A DNA stretch of 64,000 bases, taken from positions 1-64,000 of IMG/VR virus record IMGVR_UViG_3300017917_002969; one strand, written 5' to 3'. The notes under the pieces were generated by a model. It ran no database searches, was not told the origin of the DNA, and was given only the letters and a program-made list of their open reading frames with translations. Shown here one piece after another: positions 7,378 through 58,761 of this stretch (position 1 is its first letter; each line of letters opens with the position of its first letter). Source of the DNA: a virus. The position numbers were made by a program, and so were the translations under genes.

Positions 7378-9832
7378 TATGAAACCATATAGTGAAGAAA
7401 AAAGTGGTAATATAATTAGAAGAACTTTCTCAAACCTTGTTGAAAGCGAGGAATTGGTATGGCATCGTGATAAAGAAGACAGAATTGTAATTCCTTTAAA
7501 TGAAAATGATTGGTTGGTTCAATTTGACAATGAGCTGCCAAAAAAATTAAATGTTAATGAAGAATTTTTTATACCAAAAAACACTTTTCACAGAGTTATT
7601 AAGGGTTCTGGGGATTTGATGGTGGAGATTATTGAAACGAATTTTGATGATGATTTGGTTGTTTATGAAGCAATTGAAGAAGGAAAGAAGAAAAAGGGTA
7701 AAAAAGACGCTTGTTATCATAAAGTTAGAGCTAGATATGACGTATGGCCATCAGCTTATGCCTGTGTTCCAGAAAATACATCAAAAGCATTAACTAGAGA
7801 TGGTTGGAAACATGTGGATGAATTAAATATTGGTGATGAAATAATGACCTATAATATTGAAAACGATGAATTAGAATTTAAACCAATATTAAATCTCCAC
7901 AGATATAAAGATGTTAAAACAAATGTTGTTAGAAGTGGAAACAATGGCTTTATTTTTGAAGCGACAGATAACCATAAATGGGTTGTTAAATTACCAGAAA
8001 TTAAAGGAAATAGATTGCAAAAATATAATAGAGTAAACGATAAAGCTTTAATTGAGACTAGTGATTTATTAGCAAATAAAAATAATAAAAGTTTGGTTGT
8101 TTCAGCACCATATAATGGTGGTAATAATGTTAAGTTAGATGAAATATTTAAATATGGAACTAACTGGGTTAAATATATTTTAGATATAAGTAGTGAACAA
8201 AGACAAGCGTGGTTATTTAGTGCTATAGTTTATGATGGTAACCAACAAAAAGTAGAAAGATTAACCGAAAATATAAATAATATAGATGACCTAAATTGGC
8301 TATACACTGGTTCACATGGCAAACAATCTTTTGGTTTCAAACAAAAAGATATTGAACATAGAGACGCATTTTTGTTGTCAGCTTTTTTAAACTCTGGCTT
8401 AGTTACTTGGAAAAAAGCTAAAAATAAAGATATTTATTCATGTCATTATACTAGCAATAAACCCCTTAAAAACACATCTAATTTTAAATTAGTTAAAGAA
8501 AATATTTCAGATGTTTGGTGTCCAGAAACAGAAAATGGTACTTGGGTTATGATGCAAGAAACTGAAGGTCGTGGAATTATCACAATAACTGGAAATTCTG
8601 GTGCCCTTGTAAAGTGTCGTAAGGTTGGTGCTGCTAATTGGGGTAATAAGACAAACGAATCAGATGGTGAAAAAATTAATCCAGTTTTTGTAAAAGATTT
8701 TTTAACTGATTTTGGTGTATTAATTTCATTAAATTTTAGTCAAATTACAAAAATGGGTAAAGATTCTGATTCAACAAAAGAATTAGAAGAAATGATGAAA
8801 ACAATTAGAAAACCAATTATAAATGGACAAAATTATTTTGACTTTGTTAAAGATAACATAAATACAATAACTAACAACCCTAAAGTTTTATCAGCTTTAT
8901 TAGGTCAAGTTAGAAATTTATTGATTTATATTGAGCCTAGAGTAGAAAAATTTGTAAAAGACGGACCTGTAAAAATTATTGGTGGTGGTGAAGTTAACTA
9001 TAAAGAAAAGTGGTTAGAAAGAATTAATAAATTAAAAAATGAATATAAAAAAATTATCAATAATTCAGTTAAAGAAGAAACTTCGATTGAAGAAAAGTGG
9101 TCTGAAAAATACAAAAGAAGCATAGATTGCAACAATCCAAAAGGATTTAGTCAAAGAGCGCATTGCCAAGGCAGAAAGAAAACAAATGAATCTGAAGAAG
9201 ACACTAAAGAATTAATTAATTTGGCTCATAGTGCTATTACTAGAAAAAAAGGAAAGGATTATGCACCAGATGTTCATGAATTGCAAGCGTGGATTGATGC
9301 GTATTTAGCTAAAGATAAAAAAATGGATGAGGGAAAAAAGACTGATTTTTCTAAGGAAAAAGAACAAGGTCTTCACGGATGGTTTGCCAGACAAGGTGGT
9401 GAAGGAAAATCACAGGGTTGGGTAGATTGCAACACATGTAGGACAGATAAGGAAACTGGTAGGAAAAAATGCAAACCTTGTGGTAGAAAAGAAGGTGAAA
9501 ACAGAAAATATCCAGCTTGTAGACCAACACCTTCTGCTTGTGGAACACCTAAAAAAGGAAAAAGCTGGGGTAAAAAGGCTGGAAAGGCTAACGAAAACTT
9601 GTCATTACCAGAAAATTTGAGTATTTTTGTTGATAAAACACAAATTAAAAGTATTCTTAGAGAAACATTTAACCAAGAAGATACCATGACAGAACCAATG
9701 ACACAACCAGCGCCAGTTAAACCAAAAGAGGCCCCAACAAAGCCTTTTACTGAACCAGTTAAACCAAGTAGAAAGGATAAACCTTTTCTTCCAATGCCTA
9801 ATGTTCAACCAGACCCAAAAGCTAAAAAATAA
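7367..9832 (+). CDS. Modular polyprotein (cupin-like domain plus basic Cys-rich modules) containing an intein
   Basis: N-terminal WHRD..FIPKNTFHRVIKG cupin pattern; modules DACYHKV..WPSAYA/SGALVKCR, KWSEKYKRSIDC..HC, CNTC..CKPCGR..YPACRP, bounded by IEE/TNE/MDE. Confidence 0.75.
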   Translation: MKNNMKPYSEEKSGNIIRRTFSNLVESEELVWHRDKEDRIVIPLNENDWLVQFDNELPKKLNVNEEFFIPKNTFHRVIKGSGDLMVEIIETNFDDDLVVYEAIEEGKKKKGKKDACYHKVRARYDVWPSAYACVPENTSKALTRDGWKHVDELNIGDEIMTYNIENDELEFKPILNLHRYKDVKTNVVRSGNNGFIFEATDNHKWVVKLPEIKGNRLQKYNRVNDKALIETSDLLANKNNKSLVVSAPYNGGNNVKLDEIFKYGTNWVKYILDISSEQRQAWLFSAIVYDGNQQKVERLTENINNIDDLNWLYTGSHGKQSFGFKQKDIEHRDAFLLSAFLNSGLVTWKKAKNKDIYSCHYTSNKPLKNTSNFKLVKENISDVWCPETENGTWVMMQETEGRGIITITGNSGALVKCRKVGAANWGNKTNESDGEKINPVFVKDFLTDFGVLISLNFSQITKMGKDSDSTKELEEMMKTIRKPIINGQNYFDFVKDNINTITNNPKVLSALLGQVRNLLIYIEPRVEKFVKDGPVKIIGGGEVNYKEKWLERINKLKNEYKKIINNSVKEETSIEEKWSEKYKRSIDCNNPKGFSQRAHCQGRKKTNESEEDTKELINLAHSAITRKKGKDYAPDVHELQAWIDAYLAKDKKMDEGKKTDFSKEKEQGLHGWFARQGGEGKSQGWVDCNTCRTDKETGRKKCKPCGRKEGENRKYPACRPTPSACGTPKKGKSWGKKAGKANENLSLPENLSIFVDKTQIKSILRETFNQEDTMTEPMTQPAPVKPKEAPTKPFTEPVKPSRKDKPFLPMPNVQPDPKAKK
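7763..8596 (+). mobile_element. Intein (278 aa) with degenerate LAGLIDADG-like region
   Basis: Starts CVPENTSKALTRDGWK; block B TDNHKW; block F VWCPET; ends ITGN followed by Ser+1; AWLFSAIVYDG remnant. Confidence 0.85.
9599..9629 (+). promoter_or_regulatory. Bacteroidota-type promoter embedded in CDS
   Basis: TTG-N20-TATTTTTG. Confidence 0.4.
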
Positions 9833-12551: not shown

Positions 12552-15500
12552 ATGCTAACAAAAACAGAGATATTTAAAGAGTATGCGAAGTGTTTGGCTA
12601 GTCCTATCTATGCGATAGAGACTTATCTAGAAACATTCGACAAAACTCAAGAAGGCTTTGTTCCGTTTAAGTTATTCCCAAGACAGAAGGAAATCATACA
12701 TGCTTATGATAAGCATAGGTTTAACCTTATAACCAAACCAAGACAAGCTGGGGTTTCTACAACAACAGCTGCATACATGTCTATTAAGGTTGGTTTTGCC
12801 GATGTAGATAACCCAGAAGCGGTACTAATTATTGCGAACAAACAAGAATTGGCGTTTGAATTCTTAGCCAAGATTAAAGATTTTGTTTCCCAGTTACCTA
12901 GATGGGTTTGGGGAAGCGAATATTACGGAAGCAACAAAAATGAAGAGAAATCAATATTTTTAACAGATTCTAAGAAAGAAATTAAATTGCCTAACGGTAG
13001 TCGTGTAAAGGCAGTTGCCACATCTAAAGATGCGTTGCGTGGTTTTACACCAACATATCTTGTAATGGATGAGGCCGCTTATATTGATAATGGCGCTGAG
13101 GTATTTGGTGCCGCTTTAACTGCGTTAGGTACGGGTGGTAAAGCAACACTTATTTCCACTCCACGTGGTATGGATGCTCTTTATTATAAAACATACGACC
13201 AAGCAAAGAAAAAAGAAAACAACTTCAACATCATTGAGATGAAATGGTATGAAGATTTGCGATACAATAAAGACTTGCGTTGGATTAAGAATGATGTAAT
13301 TGAACCAGAAGTTGAATTTACATTTGGTTCTTATAACCAAAGAATAAGCGAAGGGTGGAAACCCACATCATCTTGGTATGAGGAAATGTGTCGTGGTATG
13401 AACAATGATGCTAAGATGATTGCACAAGAATTGGACGTATCATTTATTGGTTCTGGTGGTAATGTTATTGATGAAGAATACATTGATTTTCAGAACAAAA
13501 ACAATGTTAAAGAACCTTTATATACTGCTGGACCAGAAGGTGAAATATGGATTTGGGCTGAGCCACAAGAAGGTCATCAATACATCATGGGTTGTTTACC
13601 ACCAAATGAAAAAGTGTTAACAAATAATGGGTTAAAAAACATACAAGACGTTGAATTAGATGATATGTTGGTTAGCGAAAATGGTGAATATGTTAACATT
13701 ATTAACAAACAAATTTATCCAGTCATTAATGAAGACATATTTGAAGTTCAAATAGATAATACTTTTAGAACAACAACTTTTACTAAGGAACACCCATTAT
13801 TGGTTAGTAAACCAATACTTAAAAGAAATTATGACAAAAAAAATAATCTTTATAAATTTAACGAGAGATATTGGGATTTTAATTTTAATTTCACTAGAAT
13901 GGAAGAGGTTGAAATTGGAGATTGGGTTAAAGTCCCTAATATTTATAAAAAAGAATTTACTAGTATTTTAGATAATAAATGGTTTATTACGAAAAATATT
14001 AGAAACGATTTTAATATAGCCTCACCATTAAATGATAAAGATTTTTGGTGGTTTATAGGTGTGTGGTTAGGTGATGGATGGTTAGGTAAATTAAATGATA
14101 GTCATACTATATCTATCTGTTTTGATTCTAAAGATGATTATTATTTGAATAAGACAAATGAATTAATTATTAGATTATTTGATAGGTCACCTTCATTTAT
14201 TGATAGAGGTAAAAACACTTTTGAATTGGTGTTCAATTCAAAATTTCTTTACTATTTCATATTAGAAAATTTCGGTCAATATTCTAATGGTAAGAAAATA
14301 AATGAATGGGTTAAATTCATCCCTAAAGATTTTAAAATTGAATTGATTAAAGGTTATTTGGCTAGTGATGGTTCTTGGTTTAAAACTGAAAAAAATGGTA
14401 AGGTAAATTCTAAAATAAGCTTTATTAGTATAAATTTAGAATTATTAGAATCAATTCAAGATATAATATTTTCGTTGGGGGTGATATCGTCATTAAATAA
14501 GTTAAGAAGCGCTAGTAATAGTCATCATATACAAGGCAAACTAGTAAACCAAAAAGAAGCATATAACTTATGTTTGTCCAACCAAGATAGTTTAGATTTG
14601 ATTAATTTATTAAATAATGATGTTTTAGACCCTAAATTAAATAGATTTAAGTTAGATGAATTTAAGACTATTAATAATAGAACTATAAAATCTTGTCATT
14701 TTAGTAAAGATAAAGATTTTATTTATTTTAAAATTAAAAATATTAATAAGAATAAATTTACTGGAAATGTTTATAATTTTGAATGCGATACACACACATT
14801 TATGTGTCATCATATAACAACACATAATTGTGATGTGTCAAGAGGTGATGGAGAGGATTCATCTACAATGGTTATTCTTGATTTTACAACAATGGAACAA
14901 GTTGTTGAATACCAAGGAAAGATACAACCAGATTTGCTAGCTCAAATTGTTGAAGAATACGGAAACCTATACGAAGCATATACGGTTGTCGATGTTACTG
15001 GTGGTATGGGTGTTTCAACGGTTTTAAAGCTTCTTGAGTTCAATTACAAGAGACTTCACTATGATAATCAAAACGGTAAGGTCTTATCTTCAAAACAGAG
15101 AGAATTGTCAAATTATAATAAAGACAATAAAATACCAGGGTTTCACGCAACATCGGTTCGTTTGCCAATGATTTCAAACTTTGAATACAAAATTAGGACT
15201 GATGCTGTTAAGATTCGTTCTGTTAGAATGACATCAGAGATGAAAACATTTATCTATAAGAACGGTAGACCAGACCATATGGAAGGTTATCATGATGATT
15301 TAATTATGGCTATGGCTATGTGTTTATGGGTTGTTGAACATTCATTCAAAAATCTAGAACGTCTTGAGAAGCAGAATAAAGCAATGTTAAGCAGCTGGGT
15401 TATTGGTGGTTCTAATACAATAAAACCAGAATATAAAGCTAATACAACTGATAATCAACCAGTGAATAATAAACCAACAGTTATTAGTAGTTGGATGATT

Positions 15501-15602
15501 GGTGGTGAAAATAAAACCAAACCAAGGGCTAACACATTTGTGAGCAAGAATTTGCAAGACCCAACTGGTCAGTATTCTTGGTTGTTTGGAAGCAAAAAAT
15601 AA
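12552..15602 (+). CDS. terL: Terminase large subunit (T4 gp17-like), intein-containing
   Basis: KPRQAGVST Walker A, LVMDEAA Walker B, LISTPRG, QELD, nuclease G/CDVSRG..DSS and HDDLIMA. Confidence 0.95.
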   Translation: MLTKTEIFKEYAKCLASPIYAIETYLETFDKTQEGFVPFKLFPRQKEIIHAYDKHRFNLITKPRQAGVSTTTAAYMSIKVGFADVDNPEAVLIIANKQELAFEFLAKIKDFVSQLPRWVWGSEYYGSNKNEEKSIFLTDSKKEIKLPNGSRVKAVATSKDALRGFTPTYLVMDEAAYIDNGAEVFGAALTALGTGGKATLISTPRGMDALYYKTYDQAKKKENNFNIIEMKWYEDLRYNKDLRWIKNDVIEPEVEFTFGSYNQRISEGWKPTSSWYEEMCRGMNNDAKMIAQELDVSFIGSGGNVIDEEYIDFQNKNNVKEPLYTAGPEGEIWIWAEPQEGHQYIMGCLPPNEKVLTNNGLKNIQDVELDDMLVSENGEYVNIINKQIYPVINEDIFEVQIDNTFRTTTFTKEHPLLVSKPILKRNYDKKNNLYKFNERYWDFNFNFTRMEEVEIGDWVKVPNIYKKEFTSILDNKWFITKNIRNDFNIASPLNDKDFWWFIGVWLGDGWLGKLNDSHTISICFDSKDDYYLNKTNELIIRLFDRSPSFIDRGKNTFELVFNSKFLYYFILENFGQYSNGKKINEWVKFIPKDFKIELIKGYLASDGSWFKTEKNGKVNSKISFISINLELLESIQDIIFSLGVISSLNKLRSASNSHHIQGKLVNQKEAYNLCLSNQDSLDLINLLNNDVLDPKLNRFKLDEFKTINNRTIKSCHFSKDKDFIYFKIKNINKNKFTGNVYNFECDTHTFMCHHITTHNCDVSRGDGEDSSTMVILDFTTMEQVVEYQGKIQPDLLAQIVEEYGNLYEAYTVVDVTGGMGVSTVLKLLEFNYKRLHYDNQNGKVLSSKQRELSNYNKDNKIPGFHATSVRLPMISNFEYKIRTDAVKIRSVRMTSEMKTFIYKNGRPDHMEGYHDDLIMAMAMCLWVVEHSFKNLERLEKQNKAMLSSWVIGGSNTIKPEYKANTTDNQPVNNKPTVISSWMIGGENKTKPRANTFVSKNLQDPTGQYSWLFGSKK
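13593..14828 (+). mobile_element. Intein with LAGLIDADG endonuclease (412 aa)
   Basis: CLPPNEKVLT start, TKEHP block B, IGVWLGDG and IKGYLASDG motifs, VYNFE..THN followed by Cys+1. Confidence 0.95.
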
Positions 15603-15916: not shown

Positions 15917-18900
15917 ATGGCTGAAAATTTAACAATATTTCAACGACTTGGTAGAATCATCGGGCCAGATGCTATCAAGTCACAACCAAAGCAAACTTCT
16001 CAATCACCAAGATACAATATCAATGGTGATGTTTTGCTTAAAACAGACAACAAAGCTGATTACGAAAGAGCTAAGTTACAAGCCCAGCAAAATAAGTATT
16101 TGGCTCAAATGTGGAAAAAGGTTGAGAGTGGTTTATTCCAACAATCAATCAACTATGAAACAACCCGTATTGGTTCTTATTCAGACTTTGAGGCAATGGA
16201 ATTCTATCCAACCATTGCAGCCGCTTTGGATATTATGATGGAAGAATCGACAACGGTTAACGAAAAAGGTAAAATGCTTAATGTTTATTCAGATAGCAAC
16301 CGTGTTAAGGGTATCCTTGAAGACTTATTTTACAACAGACTTGACATTCATACTTCACTTCCAATGTGGACCAGAAACACACCAATTAGAGAAAATTCAA
16401 TAATTCCGCTATTAGATGGTACCGAATGTACAATTAAAGAATTATCTGATAGGGTTAAAAATGGTGAAGAAATTTGGTCTTACGCTGTCCAAGATAAAAC
16501 AAAAACCATCGTTCCGAGTAAAATTATTTGGTGTGACCTTACTAGGAAAGATAGCGAATTATATAGGGTAACATTAGATGATGGTACTTATATTGATACC
16601 ACGCCAGACCATGAATACATGTTAAGAGATGGTTCTTTTAAAAGAGCAGATAAATTAACTGAAGGTCAATCTTTAATGCCTTTCTATACTAGAAAAAGCG
16701 AAAAAAAGAAAGACAGAATTTCTGGTTATGAAAAAGTTTTTAATCCAAACACTGGAAAATATAAATTCACACACACTATGGTATCTCATGAGTGTGTTAG
16801 AAATTTGGAGAAAGAAAAATTAATTAATGAACAATTTGACACACATCACATTGATTTTAATAAACTAAATAATCACCCAAATAATCTGAAAAGATTGACT
16901 CATTCTGAACATTTCAAACTACATATAGAACATTTTGATAAAATTTTAGGTTCACCAGAAGTTGTTAAAAAAAGAATGGAAGGGATTGATAAATATCTTA
17001 GGTCTGACGAAAGAAGAGAACGTCTTTCGAAAGAAATGAGTGGTTTCTACCCTAAATATTTTAATGAATACAACAATAGCGAATTACACACTAAACATAA
17101 TAAAGTTCGTTCAACTAAAATGTTAAGTAATTGGAGTTCTGATAATTTTATTGTTAAAACTAAAAAAGGAATGACAATTGAAATAACTGATGATTGTTTA
17201 AATTATATTTCTGAATTAATAATATCTAATGAAAAATATGTTGGTGTTAATGAATTGTCTAAGTTACTGAAAAAAGATGAAAAATTTATAAAGTTATTTA
17301 AAATAACTTATACGTTAAAAAAAGATATCCAAAAATCCATAAACCCAACAACAATAAAAAAAGTTATTTTTAGAAAAACGGGTAAAAACTATTTTGATTA
17401 TGCCTTATCAATTAAACCAAGTTTGATTATTGATAAAGCATATATTAAGGCTAAATCTATTTTTATTGGTAAGACCACTTCAAAAATAGTTAATCATAAA
17501 GTTGTTTCGGTTGTTAAATTAGAAGAAACCTCTGATGTTTATTGTTTGGAAGCTGTTGGACCAAATGGAGAACATGATAGACATAATTTTCCTGTCTGTG
17601 GCTTTAACAAAAATAATTCATATTCAAGAAGTTCTGGGGTTTTCTTATCCAACTGTAAGTATGGTGATAACTTTGTTTATTTAAACATTGACGAGAAGTA
17701 TGGTATTCTTAGCGCTAAGCAAATGCCTAACTACGAAATGGAACGTAGAGAAAGTGGATTATTTGATATGATTACTGGTCGTGAAACACCAAACCATCAA
17801 GTTGCTAGTAGCGATAAAACCAAGTTCTATTGGAGAGGACGTGATGTTGAGTTTAATTCGTGGCAAATTGCTCACTTCCGTTTATTGGGTGATGATAGAA
17901 GACTTCCTTACGGTACTTCTGTTTTGGAAAAGGCAAGACGTATTTGGAAGCAACTTATCCTATCTGAAGACTCAATGCTTGTTTATCGTGTTACCCGTGC
18001 ACCAGAAAGACGTGTTTATAAAATCTATGTTGGTAACATAGATGATGCTGATGTACCAGCATATGTAAACGAAATCGCTGATAGATTTAAGCGTATTCCA
18101 ATTGTTGACCCGCAAACTGGTCAAATGGACCTTAGATACAATCAGTTATCTAATGACCAAGATTATTTTATTCCTGTTCGTACTGAAGATGCACCAAATC
18201 CGATTGATACCTTACCAGGTGCTTCAAACTTGGACCAAATTGCAGATATTGAATACTTAAGGAATAACTTATTTACCGCTTTACGTGTACCAAAGCCATT
18301 TTTAGGTTTTGATGAGACTACTGGTGAAGGTAAGAATCTTGCGTTACAAGATATTCGTTTTTCAAGGACGATAAATCGTATCCAGCAATCAATGCTTCAA
18401 GAACTTAACAAGATTGCTATTATTCACTTGTATCTTTTAGGTTTTGAAGAAGACTTTGATAACTTCACAATAACCCTTAATAACCCATCAACACAAGCTG
18501 AAATGCTTAAGGTTGAGCATACACAAGCTAAGGTTACGCTTTACAAGGATGCAGTATCTGATGCTGGTAATGGATTTGCTGCTATGTCAATGACACGTGC
18601 TAAAAGAGAAATTCTTGGTATGTCTGACGATGATATTAAGCAAGACTTGCTTGAACAAAGAATGGAAAAGGCAGCTGCTGCTGAATTGGCTAACTCAGCT
18701 AACGTTATTAAGCATACTGGTATGTTTGATGTTGTTGATAGAATCTATGGTGATATGCAATTGGCTCTACAAGGTGGAGGTGGTGAAGGTGGTGAAAAAG
18801 GTGAAGAAACTAGCAGTGGTGGAGGCGGAGGCGGTGGTCTCGGTGGTTCATTCGGTGGTGGTGGTTTAGGTGGTGAAGACCTAGATTTTGGTGAGGAAGA

Positions 18901-19264
18901 AGCTGGTGGTGAAAGTGAAGCAGCTACAGAAGCTGGTGCTGAAGCAGAGGCTGGTGCTGAACTTGCAGGTGGTGAGGAAGAAGCGGCAGGTGAAGAAGCG
19001 GCTGCTGAAACTGCTCCAACAGAAGTAACAGAATCAATTAAAAAGGTTAATAAATTGCTTAAAGAACAAAAGACTACATTAACCAAAAAAATAAATGATA
19101 GAACCAAAAAATATCAAAACATATTCATAAACAGACTTGTTGAATCAATCAAACCAACAGTTGTTAAAAAGGAAGAGAAGGTTAAGATTTACGACAAGAA
19201 CGTAAAAATAAACAAAGACATTGATACTATGATAAATGATATCAATAAAATGTTGGATGAATAA
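15917..19264 (+). CDS. Portal protein (T4 gp20-like), intein-containing
   Basis: IAAALDI, CKYGDNF, PYGTSVLEKARRIWKQL.L.EDSMLVYRVTRAPERRVYKI.VGN, IDTLPG, ALRVPK; Gly/Glu-rich tail. Confidence 0.95.
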   Translation: MAENLTIFQRLGRIIGPDAIKSQPKQTSQSPRYNINGDVLLKTDNKADYERAKLQAQQNKYLAQMWKKVESGLFQQSINYETTRIGSYSDFEAMEFYPTIAAALDIMMEESTTVNEKGKMLNVYSDSNRVKGILEDLFYNRLDIHTSLPMWTRNTPIRENSIIPLLDGTECTIKELSDRVKNGEEIWSYAVQDKTKTIVPSKIIWCDLTRKDSELYRVTLDDGTYIDTTPDHEYMLRDGSFKRADKLTEGQSLMPFYTRKSEKKKDRISGYEKVFNPNTGKYKFTHTMVSHECVRNLEKEKLINEQFDTHHIDFNKLNNHPNNLKRLTHSEHFKLHIEHFDKILGSPEVVKKRMEGIDKYLRSDERRERLSKEMSGFYPKYFNEYNNSELHTKHNKVRSTKMLSNWSSDNFIVKTKKGMTIEITDDCLNYISELIISNEKYVGVNELSKLLKKDEKFIKLFKITYTLKKDIQKSINPTTIKKVIFRKTGKNYFDYALSIKPSLIIDKAYIKAKSIFIGKTTSKIVNHKVVSVVKLEETSDVYCLEAVGPNGEHDRHNFPVCGFNKNNSYSRSSGVFLSNCKYGDNFVYLNIDEKYGILSAKQMPNYEMERRESGLFDMITGRETPNHQVASSDKTKFYWRGRDVEFNSWQIAHFRLLGDDRRLPYGTSVLEKARRIWKQLILSEDSMLVYRVTRAPERRVYKIYVGNIDDADVPAYVNEIADRFKRIPIVDPQTGQMDLRYNQLSNDQDYFIPVRTEDAPNPIDTLPGASNLDQIADIEYLRNNLFTALRVPKPFLGFDETTGEGKNLALQDIRFSRTINRIQQSMLQELNKIAIIHLYLLGFEEDFDNFTITLNNPSTQAEMLKVEHTQAKVTLYKDAVSDAGNGFAAMSMTRAKREILGMSDDDIKQDLLEQRMEKAAAAELANSANVIKHTGMFDVVDRIYGDMQLALQGGGGEGGEKGEETSSGGGGGGGLGGSFGGGGLGGEDLDFGEEEAGGESEAATEAGAEAEAGAELAGGEEEAAGEEAAAETAPTEVTESIKKVNKLLKEQKTTLTKKINDRTKKYQNIFINRLVESIKPTVVKKEEKVKIYDKNVKINKDIDTMINDINKMLDE
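16382..17653 (+). mobile_element. Atypical intein (424 aa; Pro1, block-F Cys) with HNH endonuclease
   Basis: PIRENSIIPLLDG start, TTPDH block B, HHIDFNKLNNHPNNL HNH, VYCLEA block F, ends FLSN followed by Cys+1. Confidence 0.85.
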
Positions 19265-21067: not shown

Positions 21068-21790
21068 ATGGATATAAATTACGATAAAATAAAAACGCTT
21101 AGACGTGGACAAACAGGTTTCGGCTATTTAATTGAGCACGATGCTGGTTATATAAGTCCAGATGAACCAAGAAATCAAGCGTTTATCAGTGAACTTAAAA
21201 AATTAGAAACTGGTAAATTGGTTATTGCCGAACCATTGGTCGTATATGTTATATTACAAAAATATGGTGTATTAAATCGTAATGGTAGAGTATATCCAGA
21301 ATCTGTACTTAAAAAACAAGTAGAACTTTATCAAAGAGCTATTAAAGAAAGAGCTGCGGTTGGTGAATTGGACCACCCAGAATCAAGCATTATTGCTGGT
21401 GATAGAATATCACATAATATTTTAGAAACATGGTGGGAAGGTAAAACCCTTATGGGTAAAATGGAAATCCTTATGACACCAGGTTTTATTAATTACGGTA
21501 TTGTATCAACAAAGGGTGATGAAGTTGCAAACTTACTAAGAAACAGAATAAAGATTGGTGTTTCATCAAGAGGTGTTGGTTCATTAAAAGAAGGTAAAAA
21601 TGGTGAACAAATAGTACAGGATGATTTTGAAATCATTTGTTGGGATGTTGTTACTGCCCCATCAACACCAGATGCTTGGATATTTAAAAATGTTGAAGAG
21701 GCAAAACCTTATGTTGAAAATGTAGAATTTAAGAAAGATGTGATTAAAGAAACACTGTCTGACAAATTAAATAAATTCTTATTGGATTAA
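21068..21790 (+). CDS. Prohead maturation protease (T4 gp21-like)
   Basis: NRNGRVYP, GELDHP, SHNI, GVSSRGVGS, DVV.APSTPDA. Confidence 0.95.
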   Translation: MDINYDKIKTLRRGQTGFGYLIEHDAGYISPDEPRNQAFISELKKLETGKLVIAEPLVVYVILQKYGVLNRNGRVYPESVLKKQVELYQRAIKERAAVGELDHPESSIIAGDRISHNILETWWEGKTLMGKMEILMTPGFINYGIVSTKGDEVANLLRNRIKIGVSSRGVGSLKEGKNGEQIVQDDFEIICWDVVTAPSTPDAWIFKNVEEAKPYVENVEFKKDVIKETLSDKLNKFLLD

Positions 21791-21907: not shown

Positions 21908-23233
21908 ATGGCAGAGAAAAAAACTATCCTTGAAGAAGCACTTTTGGATATTCAAAATATTCAGAATGCTCTCAATGCCAACACAAAAGAAATACTTCGT
22001 AGCGTTGCTAAGGAAGAAATTGACGGTGTTGTGAAAGAATCCATGATGAAGGATTATGAAGAAGAGGAAGTTGAAGAGGCTCTTAACGAAGTGTCACACG
22101 AAGAACATGAGAAGTCTGAAACTCCAGCGGAGGAAAAGAAAGAACATGGTAAGAAAGGTACTGAGAAAAAAGAGAAATCTGAAACTAAATCTAAAAAAAT
22201 GACTGAGGGTGAAATGTCAACAGAAGGTATGTACGAAGAAGGAATGTATGAAGAAGACATGACTGATGAAGGTGCATATGAAGAAGGAATGGACGATGCA
22301 ATGGCATCTGAAGAATTGGACATGACTCAAGCGTCTGATGATGACGTTATCGCTATCTACAAGAAATTGAGTGGTGAAGACGAAATCGAAATCGTGGGTG
22401 ACGAAATTCACTTAAATGTTTCTGAACCAGGCGAGTATATCCTTAAAACTTCTGATTTTAAAGGCGCATCTGAAGAACCAGAAATGGACATGGACATGGA
22501 TATTGACATGGAACCAGAAATGGATGATGAAGATGAGGTTGATTACGAAATCGAAATGGGTGATGAAGATGAGGTTGATGCTGATTCTGAATTTACACCA
22601 GTAGAAGACGAAGAAGAAGGTGAAGAAGAAGAAGGTGAAGAAGAAGAGGAAGAAGAAGAAGAGGAAGAAGAAAAAATTGAGGAAAAAATATCTATTGGTA
22701 CTGGCATGAGCGTGGGTACACACCGTGGTCAAGGTCCTAAATCAATTGGTGCTCCTGAGAATCCAAAATCTGAATCTCTTAATGAGGCAATCGCTGCTAA
22801 AAAACTTGTTTCTGAAACTGCCAAAAAATATAACGCTCTATTAACTGAAGCTAAAAAACTTAAGAGTGAGAATGATGAATTCAGAACTGCTCTTAAAGAA
22901 TTTAGAAATAAGTTAGTAGAAACAGTAGTGTTCAATAGCAACTTAACTTATGTTACAAGATTGTTCATGGAACACTCAACTACCAAGGGTGAAAAACAAA
23001 GTATCATCAAAAGGTTTGATGAGGAAGTTACTAACCTTAAGGAGTCTAAAAAGTTATACAAAACTATTGCCAATGAATTAGCTTCTAGAAAGCCAATTGC
23101 TGAGTCAGTAGAAAACAAAATAATCAAAGAGGCAACTACCAGTTCTTCAAAACAATTAAATGAAAGTACTGCGTATGTTGACCCATCGACTAAGAGAATC
23201 CTTGATTTGATTCAAAGAGTTGAGAAAAAATAA
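21908..23233 (+). CDS. Scaffold/prohead core protein
   Basis: Extremely acidic, poly-Glu run, coiled-coil C-terminus; lies between protease and MCP. Confidence 0.8.
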   Translation: MAEKKTILEEALLDIQNIQNALNANTKEILRSVAKEEIDGVVKESMMKDYEEEEVEEALNEVSHEEHEKSETPAEEKKEHGKKGTEKKEKSETKSKKMTEGEMSTEGMYEEGMYEEDMTDEGAYEEGMDDAMASEELDMTQASDDDVIAIYKKLSGEDEIEIVGDEIHLNVSEPGEYILKTSDFKGASEEPEMDMDMDIDMEPEMDDEDEVDYEIEMGDEDEVDADSEFTPVEDEEEGEEEEGEEEEEEEEEEEEKIEEKISIGTGMSVGTHRGQGPKSIGAPENPKSESLNEAIAAKKLVSETAKKYNALLTEAKKLKSENDEFRTALKEFRNKLVETVVFNSNLTYVTRLFMEHSTTKGEKQSIIKRFDEEVTNLKESKKLYKTIANELASRKPIAESVENKIIKEATTSSSKQLNESTAYVDPSTKRILDLIQRVEKK

Positions 23234-23258: not shown

Positions 23259-25136
23259 ATGTCACATTTATTAACATCTGGACAAGTGGGTAACATCGGA
23301 TTGAACCATATGAAGGCTATCCGTAAAGAAACCCAAGCAAAATGGGATGCTCTAGGCTTCCTTGATGGTCTTAAAGGCCACGTAAAAGAAAACATTGCTC
23401 AGTTATATGAGAACCAAGCTTCTAGCTTGTTAACTGAGTCAACTACCGCAACATCATCTGGTTCATTCGAAACAGTTGTGTTCCCTATCGTAAGACGTGT
23501 ATTCTCTAAATTGCTTGCTAACGACATCGTGTCTGTACAAGCTATGAACATGCCTATCGGTAAATTGTTCTACTTCGTTCCTCAAACTTCTAGCCGTGTT
23601 AATGCTAGCGGAACTGGTGGTGACCCATATGCTACAGTACCTTATGATGGTCAATATTCTGCACACACTGCAATGAATGGTTTAAATAATGGTACCGCAA
23701 CTGGTGCAGCTCTTCCTGATTGTGTTGTTGGTGTTAACTGTAGAGTAACTCAACTTGAAGCTAAAAACCTATACGACATTTTCTACAATGACGGTATGTT
23801 TGACAATTCAAAAGGTACTCTTACAATTAAAACTATGAATAATTTAAGAGCGTTTACTTTTTCTGATAATGGTACACTTAGCGCTGCTGCGCCAACAGCT
23901 ACACTTCCAACTGCTACTGACGGTTCTTTAAGAAGTGTTATTATCGGTTTATCTGGTTTCACTGGTGGTGCTCCAGATAGTAAAGGAACTGGAAACGGTG
24001 GTCGTGAAGTATTAACAGGTCCTGATGGTAACAACATGGATACTGAGTCATTTTTAGCTTCATTGATTGCAGTTACATCATCAAACATTCTTGATAGAGA
24101 TGGTAACGTTATAGTTGCTGCTAATACTGAAGTTCCATTACGTGTTGTTACTCAACAATACAGCAAGAGTATAGTACAAACAACTGGAACTCTAACAACA
24201 CCTAACGGTCTTATGTATGTTGAAGTTGACCTTCGTCACCCTGTGGGTACAAGTGCTGGTTCTACCCCTGCTGCTGCTGGTACTGCAACTTACGATGGTT
24301 ATGTAGGTGCTTCTGCAACTACTGCTTCTGCTTTCACAAGTATCCTTTCATTCGCTTGGGCTGAATACGCTTCTCTTGAATTGGAAACTGAAATGGGTGA
24401 AGTATCATTCACTCTTCAAGAAGTTGTTGTAGCTGTTGAAGAAAGAAAATTACGTGCAACATGGTCACCAGAATTGGCTCAAGACGTTAGTGCATTCCAC
24501 AACATCGATGCTGAAGCTGAATTGACTGCTATGTTGTCTGAGCAAGTTGCTGCTGAAATCGACCGTGAAATCCTTAGAGATTTGCGTAAATTGGCTGCAT
24601 GGCAACTTCGTTGGGATTACAACGGTTGGAGAAAAGCTTCTTCTGCTGCAAGCCCATACACTCAAAAAGACTGGAACCAAACTCTTATCACAAGAATTAA
24701 CCAGTTGAGTGCTCAAATCCACAAATCAACTCTTCGTGGTGGTGCTAACTTCGTTGTTGTTTCTTCTGAAATTTCAGCTGTATTCGATGACTTAGAATAC
24801 TTCCACGTATCTGATGCTAACCCAGAGCAAGACCAATACAACATGGGTATTGAAAGAATCGGTACATTGGGTGGTCGTTATCAAGTATATCGTGACCCAT
24901 ATGCGCCAGCTTACTCAGTAATCGTTGGTCACAAAGGTAAGTCATTGTTGGATACAGGTTACATCTACGCACCATACGTGCCATTGCAACTTACTCCTAC
25001 TATGTACAATCCATTTAACTTTGCTCCAGTTAAAGGTATCATGACTCGTTACGCTAAAAAGTCTGTGAATAATCGCTTCTACGGCCACGTGCGTGTAGAC
25101 GGTGTTCCTACTTTCAACGTAGCAGAATTGAGATAA
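23259..25136 (+). CDS. Major capsid protein (T4 gp23-like) with large Ser/Thr/Gly-rich insertion
   Basis: PIVRRVF, VSVQAMNMP.G, RKLRATWSPELAQD..AFH.IDAEAEL, EIDREI, YAPYVPL, GIMTRY. Confidence 0.97.
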   Translation: MSHLLTSGQVGNIGLNHMKAIRKETQAKWDALGFLDGLKGHVKENIAQLYENQASSLLTESTTATSSGSFETVVFPIVRRVFSKLLANDIVSVQAMNMPIGKLFYFVPQTSSRVNASGTGGDPYATVPYDGQYSAHTAMNGLNNGTATGAALPDCVVGVNCRVTQLEAKNLYDIFYNDGMFDNSKGTLTIKTMNNLRAFTFSDNGTLSAAAPTATLPTATDGSLRSVIIGLSGFTGGAPDSKGTGNGGREVLTGPDGNNMDTESFLASLIAVTSSNILDRDGNVIVAANTEVPLRVVTQQYSKSIVQTTGTLTTPNGLMYVEVDLRHPVGTSAGSTPAAAGTATYDGYVGASATTASAFTSILSFAWAEYASLELETEMGEVSFTLQEVVVAVEERKLRATWSPELAQDVSAFHNIDAEAELTAMLSEQVAAEIDREILRDLRKLAAWQLRWDYNGWRKASSAASPYTQKDWNQTLITRINQLSAQIHKSTLRGGANFVVVSSEISAVFDDLEYFHVSDANPEQDQYNMGIERIGTLGGRYQVYRDPYAPAYSVIVGHKGKSLLDTGYIYAPYVPLQLTPTMYNPFNFAPVKGIMTRYAKKSVNNRFYGHVRVDGVPTFNVAELR

Positions 25137-25155: not shown

Positions 25156-25191
25156 AACAAAAAGGCTAGATATTCTCTAGCCTTTTTTGTT
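25156..25191. terminator. Bidirectional-type terminator after MCP
   Basis: aacaaaaaggctaga-tattc-tctagccttttttgtt. Confidence 0.85.
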
Positions 25192-25219
25192 TTATATAAT
25201 TGTCAAGATATTTATAGAT

Positions 25220-25852
25220 ATGAAAGCTTTGATTAAAAGATTATTAAAAGAGGAATTAGAAAATTATCGTGGAGAGCATCAAGCCGCAGATAAAGAAGAC
25301 ATTCCAATTTATAATATGACTTTAGGTTATCCAGAGGACATATATTCTAACGAAGCTGCTAAAATGTATGGTGAGCATAGCGATGAATATTCTGACCAAT
25401 ATTCTTTAAGTGTCATTCATTCAGTTAGAAATAAACCAAAGGCTAAAGTTAAAATTTACAGAGCAGTACCAGATATTAATTATGAGGTTAATAAAGACTT
25501 AAAAGATTTAAATAATATTATTGGTTACTATTATAAATTTGGTTTCTTTCCTATGAAGTTAAAATTGATTCATGATTTGGATGATAAATACTATGAACAA
25601 ATACCTGATTATGAAGAAAGGCAAGCTAAGATATTAAGTGATATTGAATCGCAAAGGGATGATATTATAAGTAAAAAAAATAAATCTATCGGTATTAACA
25701 ATGGTGATTGGGTGACAATAAATCCAGATTACGCTAAATCACATGGTAAAAATAATCTTAATAACCGATTTAAGGTTGTTACTAAAACAGTACCAGCAAA
25801 TACTTTATTTACATTTGGCGACAGTATTCATGAATGGGGTTACAATATCTAG
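25220..25852 (+). CDS. Leader-bearing ADP-ribosyltransferase-like protein
   Basis: MKALIKRLLKEE leader; KIYRAVP..GDWVT...YA..H..EWGY resembles R-S/T-E ART strands. Confidence 0.6.
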   Translation: MKALIKRLLKEELENYRGEHQAADKEDIPIYNMTLGYPEDIYSNEAAKMYGEHSDEYSDQYSLSVIHSVRNKPKAKVKIYRAVPDINYEVNKDLKDLNNIIGYYYKFGFFPMKLKLIHDLDDKYYEQIPDYEERQAKILSDIESQRDDIISKKNKSIGINNGDWVTINPDYAKSHGKNNLNNRFKVVTKTVPANTLFTFGDSIHEWGYNI

Positions 25853-25888
25853 CTTTTTATTTATATAATTGACCAGATATTTATAGAT

Positions 25889-26647
25889 ATGAAATCTTTA
25901 ATTAAAACATTATTAAGGGAGAATTTAATGGGTGGTAAATATATATATCACGGGACTGGTAAAGGTCAAGCATTAAACATACAACGTGATGGTTATATGA
26001 AACTTAATAAAACTGGTGAAGAAAAGCCATCTATATCGTTCACTAAAGATTTAGATTACGCTAATTACTATGCTAAAGCAAAAGGTGGTAATAAAGCAGT
26101 TATTTTAAGAACAAAACTAACTAAAGATTTTATTTTATCTCCAAGAATAACAAATAACAAAGGGGATGAATTTATCACATTTAAACCAGTTGTATCTAAT
26201 AATTTAGAAATTTTAAGTAAAGATAATAATTGGCAACCGTTGAGTAAATGGGATATTATATTTGATGAACCTAAAAATTTATTTAATGAAAGTTCAAGTG
26301 GTAGTCTGAACCCAACATTATTGTCTAAAGATGATATGATTAAAATGGGTGGTACTGGCCAATTAAATAAGGCGTTTGAAAGATATATTCTTATCGATAA
26401 GATAACTGGATTAGACCCAGACCCAAGTGATTGGACCGATGATAGTGGTAACGTAAGAAAATTTGAAAAAGGTCAACCTATAGAAAAATCAATAGAAGTT
26501 ATTTATGATTCTTTTGATGATTTATATTATTTACAAAATGGAAACCATAGAATAAAACAAGCTAAAATAAATGGTGATAAATATATCAGAGCATTTATAC
26601 AGCCAGATAAAGGAAAAATAGGTGATGACGCTAAATTAACTGTTTAG
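25889..26647 (+). CDS. Leader + ART-like domain + ParB/Srx-like domain
   Basis: MKSLIKTLLRE leader; YHGT..SFT.DLDYA..YA..DE; FNE linker; YYLQNGNHRI..A. Confidence 0.65.
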   Translation: MKSLIKTLLRENLMGGKYIYHGTGKGQALNIQRDGYMKLNKTGEEKPSISFTKDLDYANYYAKAKGGNKAVILRTKLTKDFILSPRITNNKGDEFITFKPVVSNNLEILSKDNNWQPLSKWDIIFDEPKNLFNESSSGSLNPTLLSKDDMIKMGGTGQLNKAFERYILIDKITGLDPDPSDWTDDSGNVRKFEKGQPIEKSIEVIYDSFDDLYYLQNGNHRIKQAKINGDKYIRAFIQPDKGKIGDDAKLTV

Positions 26648-26650
26648 TTG

Positions 26651-26815
26651 CTAGCCTTTTTTGTTTTCATCTATCTTAGTCTTAAACTCTAAGATTGCGC
26701 TTGGTAAACCTAAAAAATAATTTCTAATTTCTTTACCTAAATCCATATCATTAGGATTTTCTTTTACCATTTTTGCTATATCTACCAAAAACGCTTTTAA
26801 TAAATCTTGTTCCAT
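26651..26815 (-). CDS. Small phage protein (PNDMDLG motif)
   Basis: ATG at 26815 downstream of a host-type promoter; ENPNDMDLGKEIR. Confidence 0.7.
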   Translation of the reverse strand: MEQDLLKAFLVDIAKMVKENPNDMDLGKEIRNYFLGLPSAILEFKTKIDENKKG

Positions 26816-26831
26816 AATAAAATTTTTAATG

Positions 26832-26862
26832 CAAATATACAATAAAAAACCCAAAGAAACAA
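26832..26862 (-). promoter_or_regulatory. Bacteroidota sigma-A-type promoter
   Basis: Minus strand TTG-N20-TATATTTG; overlaps hairpin 26847-26874. Confidence 0.7.
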
Positions 26863-26955
26863 GTCTTTGGGTTTATTTATATGTTAACTCTTATATTATT
26901 TTTTACTCATAATATCAATAATAAATATATTAAAATATAGTTTTTTGTCAAGTGA

Positions 26956-27294
26956 TTATTGAAAACTTGAGCCTAATTCACAAATAGTAGATTGAATTTG
27001 GTGCCAGTATGTATCTGCTTCATCAGCCAACGAATCACCAGTCATGTGATACCTATTAATTTCATCATCAAGAGTATTTTGGGTATCTTTTAATCTAGCG
27101 AATGGTTGTCTTAACTTTTCCATTATTTCGCTTTTCTTTTCATCGTTTAGATGTTTAATAGCCTCTTTAGTAAGTTTTAAAGCTTCTTCGTAACTACCAA
27201 TAGTCATTTTATTACAAGCTGTTTTCATTGCTGGTGTCATATATTGTCCATCAATAATTTCCTCACGAAGCCTTTTTTTAATAAAATCTTTCAT
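26956..27294 (-). CDS. Leader-bearing hypothetical protein
   Basis: Likely start MKDFIKKRLREEII at 27294, directly after the upstream stop. Confidence 0.7.
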   Translation of the reverse strand: MKDFIKKRLREEIIDGQYMTPAMKTACNKMTIGSYEEALKLTKEAIKHLNDEKKSEIMEKLRQPFARLKDTQNTLDDEINRYHMTGDSLADEADTYWHQIQSTICELGSSFQ

Positions 27295-27295
27295 A

Positions 27296-28702
27296 CTATT
27301 GCGATTTTCTAAGTTCAACTTGGCTGATGATATCAAACTGGCATACATTTTTAAGTGTAGTAACTTCTTGATTAGAGTAAGCTTGTATATCCAAATAGTA
27401 AGTGTTAGGTATAAGGCTTTGTGTATCTAGCAAGAAGTAATAATAGTTGTTGGCCATTTCTACTGGTTGCCAATCAATAACTGTAAGTTCTGGCGCACCT
27501 TCTGTAACATAAAGTCTATATTTTAAACCACTGATATTTTGTGTTTGTTCTACGGTGTATGGTATTCTAGCTGAGACAATAACCTTACGAATATCACCAC
27601 GTTTGACTTGTTCTTTATTTTTAAGTCCGCCTATTGAAACTGCTACCTTTTTAGGTAACATATCATTATTACCAATGTTGTAATAACCAAATGAATCTTT
27701 AACAACAAAATCAAGTGTTATGTCAGGTCTAGAAACTCCATTTACGATTATTCCAGTCCAAACATCATTATACATTGTTTCTATATTGCTAGAGGTAGCT
27801 GGTATAGTAATATCTATTGAATAAACACCTAACGTTACGTGATTAACTTCTGATGTACTGTATGATAATATTATATTACCATTATTATCATATATAACCA
27901 CACTTGGGTTTGTGTCTAAATTTACTGGATTACCAGCTAAATTAACATATAGATACAGTTTATTTGGTTTATCAGCAAAGAAATTATTTCTATCATCTTC
28001 AATATGATTATCATAAATTGTTTCTATGAATGGTTCATAAAATGTTTGTGTGTTATTGGTGAAGAAACCTACATATTGAAGTGTAGTTGTGTTCATTAAT
28101 TCGTATGCTCTGCTATATGCAATACCTAAACCATAATTTGTATCACCAGTCAATAATCCATTAACATAATCGGTAACGTCCATTTCTATATTTTCGTTAC
28201 CTTTATCAAAGTGTTGTGTTGTAACTGTAATCCCAGATGGTGAACCAGAATAAACACCAGTTCCATTATTCCAAACAATACCTGTTTGTGCTTCTATCCA
28301 GTTAGATGGACCAGTATAGTAAGCACCTTCTCCATTTGCTAAAATAGGTACTTCATAATCATAACCGACACCATTATCCCAATTTTGGTCTATTTTGAAT
28401 AAGATTAAATCGAATGATGTAGTTCTGTCTTTACCACCCATTGTTCCATTTAACAATCTTGTATCAAATGAACCAGTATTGGTCATTCTTAAAGTATGTT
28501 TAAGTTTAGTTAAATCGGTGAATGTACCACCAGTATATAATGATTTTAATCTTGATTCATCAAAATGAAACAAGAAACGGCTATATTTTTGTTCACCAAT
28601 AGCACCACCATAGAATAATTCAGTAACTGGGTTAAGACCAGTATTTACGTATTGGTTGCTTACAATGGTGTTATTTTTATCAAAATAAGTGCGGATTACC
28701 AT
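27296..28702 (-). CDS. Probable virion structural protein (beta-rich)
   Basis: 468 aa; YSRFLFHFD..W..G.G..Q.FD.G.E.IEMDVT..V..G pattern; late motif upstream. Confidence 0.6.
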   Translation of the reverse strand: MVIRTYFDKNNTIVSNQYVNTGLNPVTELFYGGAIGEQKYSRFLFHFDESRLKSLYTGGTFTDLTKLKHTLRMTNTGSFDTRLLNGTMGGKDRTTSFDLILFKIDQNWDNGVGYDYEVPILANGEGAYYTGPSNWIEAQTGIVWNNGTGVYSGSPSGITVTTQHFDKGNENIEMDVTDYVNGLLTGDTNYGLGIAYSRAYELMNTTTLQYVGFFTNNTQTFYEPFIETIYDNHIEDDRNNFFADKPNKLYLYVNLAGNPVNLDTNPSVVIYDNNGNIILSYSTSEVNHVTLGVYSIDITIPATSSNIETMYNDVWTGIIVNGVSRPDITLDFVVKDSFGYYNIGNNDMLPKKVAVSIGGLKNKEQVKRGDIRKVIVSARIPYTVEQTQNISGLKYRLYVTEGAPELTVIDWQPVEMANNYYYFLLDTQSLIPNTYYLDIQAYSNQEVTTLKNVCQFDIISQVELRKSQ

Positions 28703-58311: not shown

Positions 58312-58761
58312 TTATATATTTGGTTTTTGTGGTGATTGTGTTTGATTTACGTTCACTTTTTTCAAAACTTGTGAAAAACTATTATCACCATCTTTATTAT
58401 ATTTTGGCAAATTTGCGTCAAAATCAGAAACTGGTCTAGCCCATCTAGCTTTTGTTGGGAACCACCCTTCTATTCTATCAAGTCTGAATATTTTCCAACC
58501 GTAACTTTCACCTTTTTTAGAAGCACCAAATATTTGATACGCTCTAATTGCTCTGTTACCAGCTTTAGTATATCCGTATTGATAAACTTGAATATATCTC
58601 TTGCTGGGTGGAACCCCTTCAAAATCTCGATATAGGATGTTAACATTATACTTTCCATCTATCGCAGCCTTAACCTTGTCTTCAGAAACGCTTTCAAAAA
58701 GAAAACGATTTCTTTCAACTTCTTCCAATATAAGTTCTTCGTATAGATTGTAAAGTTTCAT
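58312..58761 (-). CDS. WYL-like domain protein with N-terminal leader
   Basis: ILY.D..KRYIQ.Y.YG..K.GN..IRAYQ..GWKIFRLDRI; leader MKLYNLYEELILEE. Confidence 0.65.
   Translation of the reverse strand: MKLYNLYEELILEEVERNRFLFESVSEDKVKAAIDGKYNVNILYRDFEGVPPSKRYIQVYQYGYTKAGNRAIRAYQIFGASKKGESYGWKIFRLDRIEGWFPTKARWARPVSDFDANLPKYNKDGDNSFSQVLKKVNVNQTQSPQKPNI

Follow-up and report, generated by a model that had tools for sequence, protein, structure and literature searches.

Why should several unrelated genes, placed behind the major capsid gene of a phage, begin with almost the same leader peptide, and two of them with almost the same promoter as well? The question is raised by the interval that follows the capsid gene in IMGVR_UViG_3300017917_002969, an IMG/VR record of 97.6 kb (31% G+C, CheckV completeness 29%) whose first 64 kb form the window analysed here. 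Genes 1 and 2 on the forward strand, and gene 3 on the reverse strand, carry N-terminal leaders of the type MKxLIKKLLRE. It is fairly likely that the locus is a hyperplastic store of effectors that are targeted to the capsid, trimmed by a protease, injected into the host and shuffled at a terminator joined to a late-gene header. It would then probably be a variant of the known T4 internal-protein and capsid-targeting sequence (CTS) mechanism, with a late header resembling promoter-early stem-loops (PeSLs), which were described in T4-type phages (Arbiol et al. 2010, PMC2839356; Comeau et al. 2014, PMC4122927). The array contains the following features (positions are those of the window).

25159..25193, forward: capsid-gene terminator, a 12-bp hairpin with a T-run; repeat copy 1 is formed by the 3' arm together with the T-run (25177-25193)
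25185..25258, forward: header copy 1, consisting of T-run, AT spacer, late-type motif ATATTTATA (25208-25216), ATG and 13 leader codons
25220..25852, forward: gene 1, 210 aa, leader MKALIKRLLKE (25220-25252) and a conserved enzyme-like domain
25848..25927, forward: header copy 2, consisting of an orphan 3' arm (no hairpin), T-run, late motif, ATG and leader codons
25889..26647, forward: gene 2, 252 aa, leader MKSLIKTLLRE (25889-25921) and two domains
26651..26667, forward: repeat copy 3, an orphan 3' arm and T-run at the right end of the array
26651..26815, reverse: small gene of 54 aa that has no tag and is preceded by a TAnnTTTG-type promoter; copy 3 provides its final codons and stop (..IDENKKG stop)
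26847..26874, both directions: two-way hairpin terminator closing the convergent late operon
26956..27294, reverse: gene 3, 112 aa, the third tagged gene, leader MKDFIKKRLRE (27262-27294), position-specific scoring matrix score 19

The leaders of genes 1 and 2 read MKALIKRLLKEE and MKSLIKTLLREN, and the general form is a basic (+2 to +3) amphipathic helix of 11-13 residues, MKxLIKKLLRE(x)L. In the AlphaFold model of gene 1 the leader forms a helix of its own, predicted with low confidence, and the domain that follows has a mean pLDDT of 92. When a position matrix built from the leaders of relatives was scored over the starts of open reading frames (ORFs), exactly three leader ORFs were found in the 97.6-kb record, against 0.06 expected, all of them in the interval that follows the capsid gene. 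Besides these three genes, at least 15 unrelated cargo families in relatives start with MKxLIKKLLRE. Across 26 distinct leaders Ile5 is invariant and is written ATA, ATT or ATC; Leu8 and Leu9 (position 9 being L, V or I) are written TTA, CTA, CTT or CTG, Arg10 is written AGA, AGG, CGA or CGT, and Glu11, present in 25 of the 26, GAA or GAG. The amino acids are thus kept through synonymous codons and selection therefore acts on the peptide, which argues both against a start of gene 2 at Met14 and against explaining the repeat purely at the nucleotide level.

A late-type motif, ATATTTAT(A/T), occurs mostly 11-21 nt before the starts of the terminase, the protease and other probable structural genes. 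In 9 of the 12 leader genes that bear it, the motif ends exactly 4 nt before the ATG, and a leaderless or nearly leaderless late mRNA is predicted because this distance is so short. Both forward-strand genes of the array open with ATATTTATAGAT immediately before the ATG, which for gene 1 lies at 25220, not 25221. Promoter, start codon and tag would then make up one compact unit. An earlier, sequence-only reading of this DNA had proposed such a portable unit of promoter plus packaging tag. The proposal is supported in part. The putative packaging tag is carried by many unrelated cargos; the promoter does not always accompany it, as 14 of the 26 distinct leader genes lack ATATTTAT within the 60 nt before their starts, and several of these follow the gene before them without a gap or overlap with it (by ATGA in the close relative L108). 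The leader peptide is therefore the constant portable part, and promoter plus tag is one form of it only.

These counts also bear on the idea that the header is kept for expression alone, as a late promoter with an AT-rich start suited to leaderless translation, the leader codons being constrained at the nucleotide level and the repeats having no role in recombination. The fixed spacing of motif and ATG, the AT-rich codons and the similarity of headers across genomes are what such an explanation would predict. It stands a slim chance all the same, because amino acids are conserved through synonymous changes, because the 14 genes lacking the motif, gene 3 included, keep the peptide, and because neither the non-folding arms at 25848 and 26651 nor the terminator duplicated in a relative (L026, below) has a role in expression.

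The form of the leader recalls T4. Internal proteins of T4 share a propeptide of roughly 10 residues, MKTYQEFIAE (PMC8442874), in which residues 4 and 7 mainly target the scaffold core, while residues 8 and 10 direct gp21 cleavage at L/I-x-E (PMC9026906); it was suggested earlier that such a tag lets T4-like phages load varied proteins (PMC9026906; PMC3012670). The conserved leader positions 5, 8, 9 and 11 have the same spacing as T4 residues 4, 7, 8 and 10, and the leader ends in a gp21-type site, hydrophobic-x-Glu (L/I-x-E). In both systems a short N-terminal propeptide with hydrophobic residues at i, i+3 and i+4, followed by Glu, sits on otherwise unrelated proteins, cargos are of conflict type, loci are hypervariable, and an S77 protease accompanies an acidic scaffold or scaffold-like protein. 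In contrast to T4, the locus here lies at the capsid-gene terminator between convergent late operons, and its cargos are enzyme domains of the polyvalent repertoire rather than small basic proteins. The head genes that matter for the comparison, and the gene that bounds the variable region on its right, are these.

21068..21790, forward: prohead protease, T4 gp21 type (Pfam Peptidase_S77, 1e-25; PHROG head maturation protease, 1e-42)
21908..23233, forward: very acidic scaffold-like protein, 441 aa, net charge -70, named from its place between protease and capsid genes and from its composition
23259..25136, forward: major capsid protein, gp23 family (Pfam Gp23, 1e-72), left anchor of the variable region
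27296..28702, reverse: conserved 468-aa gene, right anchor of the variable region, a 46-member cluster among the 80 loci compared below and this phage

Both a gp21-type protease, encoded 3.4 kb upstream of the array, and a candidate scaffold core are thus encoded in the same genome (Peptidase_S77 and the acidic 441-aa protein), although no family match was found for the latter. Genes 1 and 2 close the head operon and are preceded by late motifs. The proposed course of events is that the basic leader would attach the protein to the very acidic scaffold core while the prohead is being assembled, presumably by electrostatic attraction (+2 to +3 on the leaders against -70 on the scaffold-like protein). 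The gp21-type protease would then cut after the Glu of the hydrophobic-x-Glu motif, and the mature enzyme would remain in the head and enter the host with the DNA.

The family of gene 1, in which the cargo is constant and the leader depends on the lineage, provides the strongest argument for capsid targeting. Gene 1 matches PHROG 2579, 'ParB C-terminal domain' (2e-30), and has 76 homologues; an alignment-based search found more than 470 IMG/VR loci, and a single-protein locus search only 2. The family domain has six invariant residues, Tyr16, His20, Arg81, Asp163, His175 and Glu205. The mature domain opens at a conserved Tyr-Arg/Lys-Gly-Glu-His, and the short extension before it varies with phage lineage: MKxLIKxLLKE in this clade, a type with ..EIKSFLIEN.. 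in another, MKTYTEFLSE in Vibrio phage VH7D, and MKTFKQFITE or MKTFKQYFLESE in other T4-likes. The Vibrio T4-like homologues therefore carry a near-T4 CTS. A [LIVMFA]-x-E motif was present within the ten residues before the domain in 50 of 56 family members, compared with 11.5% of control windows, a count that comes from related sequences and so gives no independent-sample probability; the Glu is mostly 2-4 residues from the folded domain. That the tag tracks the phage lineage and not the cargo is expected if it must fit the phage's own assembly core.

The leader could instead serve another purpose, for instance as a helix that binds membranes or drives oligomerisation, or as a tag for degradation or regulation, on ordinary late accessory proteins that are never packaged and act in the producing cell. 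Basic amphipathic helices are a common motif with many uses, and in Vibrio phages the gene 1 homologues sit among replication genes. We give this alternative a small chance, greater than that of a header kept for expression alone, since a near-invariant Glu that follows hydrophobic-x and shortly precedes a folded domain fits gp21 specificity, since one cargo bears a leader that varies by lineage and in its T4-like Vibrio version is the T4 CTS itself, and since the genes close the head operon behind late motifs and their cargos are modules of polyvalent proteins.

How the tagged genes came to lie side by side is suggested by the repeats. The 17-mer CTAGCCTTTTTTGTTTT occurs exactly at 25177-25193 and 26651-26667; no further copies with fewer than 3 mismatches were found in the window, and a second exact copy in 64 kb would be expected by chance with a probability of about 3e-5 (our base-composition estimate). 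A 74-nt direct repeat of 85% identity pairs 25185-25258 with 25854-25927, and gapped local alignment, with two small gaps, stretches it to 25176-25258 against 25848-25926, taking in a degenerate arm, TCTAGC-TTTTT, at 25848. What the sequence-only reading had described is borne out here: the exact recurrence of the arm at 26651-26667, its degenerate copy near 25849, the encoding of the end of the convergent 54-aa ORF by the rightmost copy, and near-identical headers with late motif, ATG and leader after which the genes diverge. Of the three copies, only the first belongs to a genuine hairpin terminator (-17.2 kcal/mol, z -5.6), which is kept in position in relatives with compensatory changes in the stem. 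Copies 2 and 3 have no 5' arm and fold no better than shuffled sequence (z about 0), and are thus relics, not terminators. The stop codon of gene 1 sits inside header copy 2. Homologues of the 54-aa gene in L007, L012 and L018 have other ends (YDEGLK or DDYENV).

Tandem placement and a common 74-nt start might also point to genes 1 and 2 being tandem paralogues that diverged everywhere but at the 5' end. This can hardly be right. Blastp between the two matched only the 13-residue leader and one insignificant 29-residue stretch, leaving no similarity detectable past residue 13; folds and domain families differ; the two belong to separate wide families with other partners (76 and 42 homologues); and L108 pairs gene 1 with a different cargo. 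Paralogy was rejected because the similarity is confined to the leader.

The comparison was extended to 80 loci linked by their capsid protein (55-81% identity). In the window 2.2 kb separate the capsid gene from the 468-aa gene of the convergent operon; in the 80 loci this gap holds 0 to 8 genes, with some sites essentially empty, and most gap gene families are confined to one or a few genomes. A fixed two-gene arrangement, which would have spoken against cassettes, was thus not seen. In L108 the first slot is again occupied by gene 1, but the second by another tagged cargo; genes 2 and 3 are missing, as is the 54-aa gene. L026 shows a tagged cassette with a GNAT domain that is flanked on both sides by the complete post-capsid terminator, in copies of about 55 bp that are nearly identical; the CA junction seen after window copy 3 also follows the second of them. 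Further units of terminator plus late motif occur inside the gap of L006 and L012. Relatives are too diverged pairwise for exact breakpoints; what can be seen are the duplicated terminators of L026 and the orphan arms of the window. Because of these arms, the rewritten 3' end of the 54-aa gene, the L026 cassette, the L006 and L012 units and the swap in L108, header and terminator are proposed to act as recombination substrates, their action being read from scars.

A compact header opens the first genes of the array; it consists of a terminator 3' arm with its T-run, a late motif that stops exactly 4 nt short of the ATG, and the leader codons. On this account, cargo genes would be gained, lost and exchanged through the homology between copies of header and terminator, the role that PeSLs play in T4-type phages, and such events would have left behind, as scars, the orphan arms at 25848 and 26651. 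As with PeSLs, a composite of stem-loop and promoter motif is repeated in a hyperplastic region (L006, L012 and L026, with partial copies in the window), repeats flank variable ORFs (direct repeats bracket the L026 cassette), and orphan or chimeric copies are present, as expected from crossovers within the element. Unlike PeSLs, the promoter is of late type, ATATTTAT(A/T), and not early (sigma-70-type), and the unit runs without an untranslated region (UTR) into an ATG and a protein tag. The suggestion of PeSL-like shuffling in the sequence-only reading therefore stands as far as the L026 cassette between duplicated terminators is concerned; exchange itself is deduced from scars in sequence.

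Untagged genes also occupy the gap. Directly after the capsid terminator there is often one of about 228 aa (L006, L008, L015, L030, L035 and others) or a longer form of about 530-570 aa (L009, L021, L039, L059) that matches REase_MTES_1575 and a Ros/MucR zinc finger. The long form is probably a mobile endonuclease, which could also drive turnover of the region. In L048 the 468-aa anchor gene (7855-9249) lies on the capsid strand right after the capsid gene, inverting the usual convergent order.

The cargo of gene 2 can be described from its two domains and 42 homologues. The C-terminal domain (about aa 140-250), with a GNHR motif, was modelled confidently, and all of the Foldseek matches listed belong to the ParB/Srx superfamily (ParB, KorB, Noc, sulfiredoxin, SbnI and a serine kinase among others), with probability up to 1.00 and E of only about 1e-2; the model thus shows a ParB/sulfiredoxin fold with a conserved Arg motif. 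The N-terminal domain (about aa 15-130) has a YHGT / SFT / DEF motif pattern and is a probable ADP-ribosyltransferase (ART) fold. Atlas leads (PARP, Tox-ART-HYD1, Tpt1) were weak, Pfam ART-PolyVal matched 2 of 13 members of the family (E 0.012), and the AlphaFold2 model of this domain was poor; the N-terminal profile gave nothing significant against two ART-PolyVal segments in hhalign or against PDB sequences. No match to gene 2 was found among isolated phages with tblastn, and a single-protein IMG/VR locus search with gene 2 returned nothing. Some homologues consist of only the ParB-like or only the ART-like part, some have the latter at the C-terminus, others have kinase-like or ART-PolyVal partners, and one protein fuses the C-terminal domain to the gene 1 domain, so that, judging from these architectures, modules recombine freely behind leader-like N-termini.

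Gene 3 is the last gene of the convergent late operon, starting 1 nt past the stop of the 468-aa gene, and its product is a small Cys-containing helical domain. It has homologues in five relatives, in one of which (L007) it is fused to a ParB-like domain. None of genes 1-3 matched Pfam or NCBIfam.

Polyvalent proteins of phages and conjugative elements unite two to fifteen disparate effector domains in one polypeptide, and their delivery with the DNA was predicted (Iyer et al. 2017, PMC5512222). Some ORFs of 2,000-3,500 aa likewise contain the gene 1 domain, and two of them (2,426 and 3,292 aa) also match Pfam ART-PolyVal above threshold and are therefore polyvalent proteins in the sense of Iyer et al. 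The same repertoire (an ART-PolyVal-type ART, a ParB/Srx-like domain and the gene 1 domain) and a predicted DNA-linked delivery are common to both settings. Here, however, the domains come as one- or two-domain proteins (gene 1 with one, gene 2 with two) behind a lineage-specific leader, not as one giant polypeptide.

Several points weigh against a locus of tagged, head-loaded and shuffled effectors. The leader is basic and that of T4 is not (MKxLIKKLLRE against MKTYQEFIAE), and only the hydrophobic spacing and the terminal Glu agree, so that the leader resembles the T4 CTS in its pattern but not in its sequence. With 4 nt between motif and ATG, the transcript start could fall within the leader, and the public call of gene 2 (P0001, 239 aa) begins at Met14, omitting the leader (25889-25927). 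The complete relative G001 has a few leader-like ORFs in other places as well. The phage has no cultured relative, the nearest isolates being Flavobacterium myoviruses with 41% capsid identity over 38% of the protein. As for the cargos, the ART call for gene 2 is weak, and no recognisable solved fold was found for gene 1 with Foldseek against PDB or with VIA-align wide; its fold searches matched only the helical insert at 84-158 (Z up to 6.2), with no informative relative. Finally, the two window headers are 84% alike upstream and 82% in the leader codons, compared with 78% and 67% between the gene 1 header and that of its L108 orthologue, but headers of other genomes reach 78-84% upstream. 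Because similarity between genomes is almost equal to that within this one, recent exchange of headers within this genome is plausible but not proven.

This case is set apart by a divergent, basic tag that is joined directly to a late motif, by its position at the capsid terminator and by cargo domains shared with polyvalent proteins. A broader reading for the whole clade, which we put forward tentatively and with less confidence than head loading at this locus, is that a re-invented basic leader has been fused UTR-free to a late promoter, giving an adaptor of 60-80 bp for 'express late, package, trim' which, at the capsid-gene terminator, also serves for recombination, and that polyvalent effector domains are delivered as tagged singletons. 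Should the leader be a capsid-targeting signal, it would provide a sequence rule for listing the proteins injected by an uncultured clade of jumbo phages, and those listed would be candidate anti-defence or host-takeover enzymes, mostly unannotated. T4-type loading would then tolerate a very different, basic tag, which would be useful for engineered protein delivery in phage heads; T4-style tagged internal proteins and polyvalent proteins would be two packagings of one effector pool; and the PeSL idea would be widened from early genes to late, head-loaded cargo. Automatic annotation under-reports the tag, since public gene calls can skip the leader, as in gene 2.

Other N-termini in the clade resemble tags. 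In L007, L010 and L018 the first gene after the capsid gene, directly behind its terminator, belongs to a family starting MKLSEIF(N/D)ELLEA, also with 4 nt between motif and ATG; this looks like a second, acidic and more T4-like leader type. A 149-aa ORF on the reverse strand of the window (58312-58761) starts with MKLYNLYEELILEE, an acidic amphipathic N-terminus ending in L-x-E, and may be another protein tagged with this second type. A further N-terminal pattern recurs on tandem or neighbouring genes, as MKI.I.E.QY.. beyond the window (G000:C1:89901-91031 and 94248-95264) and as ..E.E...IL.LH.. in relatives, downstream of the capsid gene in L053, L058, L070 and L080; a hairpin and late motif precede each of these genes, which may be a second header-linked family. 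A conserved internal stretch, MKEEIKELVKESL, weakly leader-like by score, occurs in a head-module ORF, itself conserved, upstream of the capsid gene (L058 222, L070 4566, L071 1468, L080 1247), about 1.4 kb upstream in L070. By position this ORF is possibly the scaffold gene, and the stretch may hint that the leader mimics a scaffold helix.

As to the wider genome, the capsid protein has 597 relatives in IMG/VR, and a relative reached through it is a complete 345-kb genome with terminal repeats, which places the record in a jumbo T4-like lineage (roughly 340 kb). The large terminase and the portal of the head module each carry an inserted element. The terminase (12552-15602, 1016 aa) is oversized and has an internal stretch matching ribonucleotide-reductase-type PHROGs; the portal (15917-19264, 1115 aa) is likewise oversized, with an HNH-endonuclease-like insert, and both inserts are probably inteins. 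TAnnTTTG-type motifs (such as TATATTTG) lie 5' of the untagged small gene (26816-26846, reverse strand) and of the endonuclease-like genes, at the promoters of the first post-capsid genes in L006, L008, L015 and L030. This suggests host-type (Bacteroidota-like) early promoters interleaved with the late cassettes, and, helped by these promoters, we infer that the host may be a member of the Bacteroidota.

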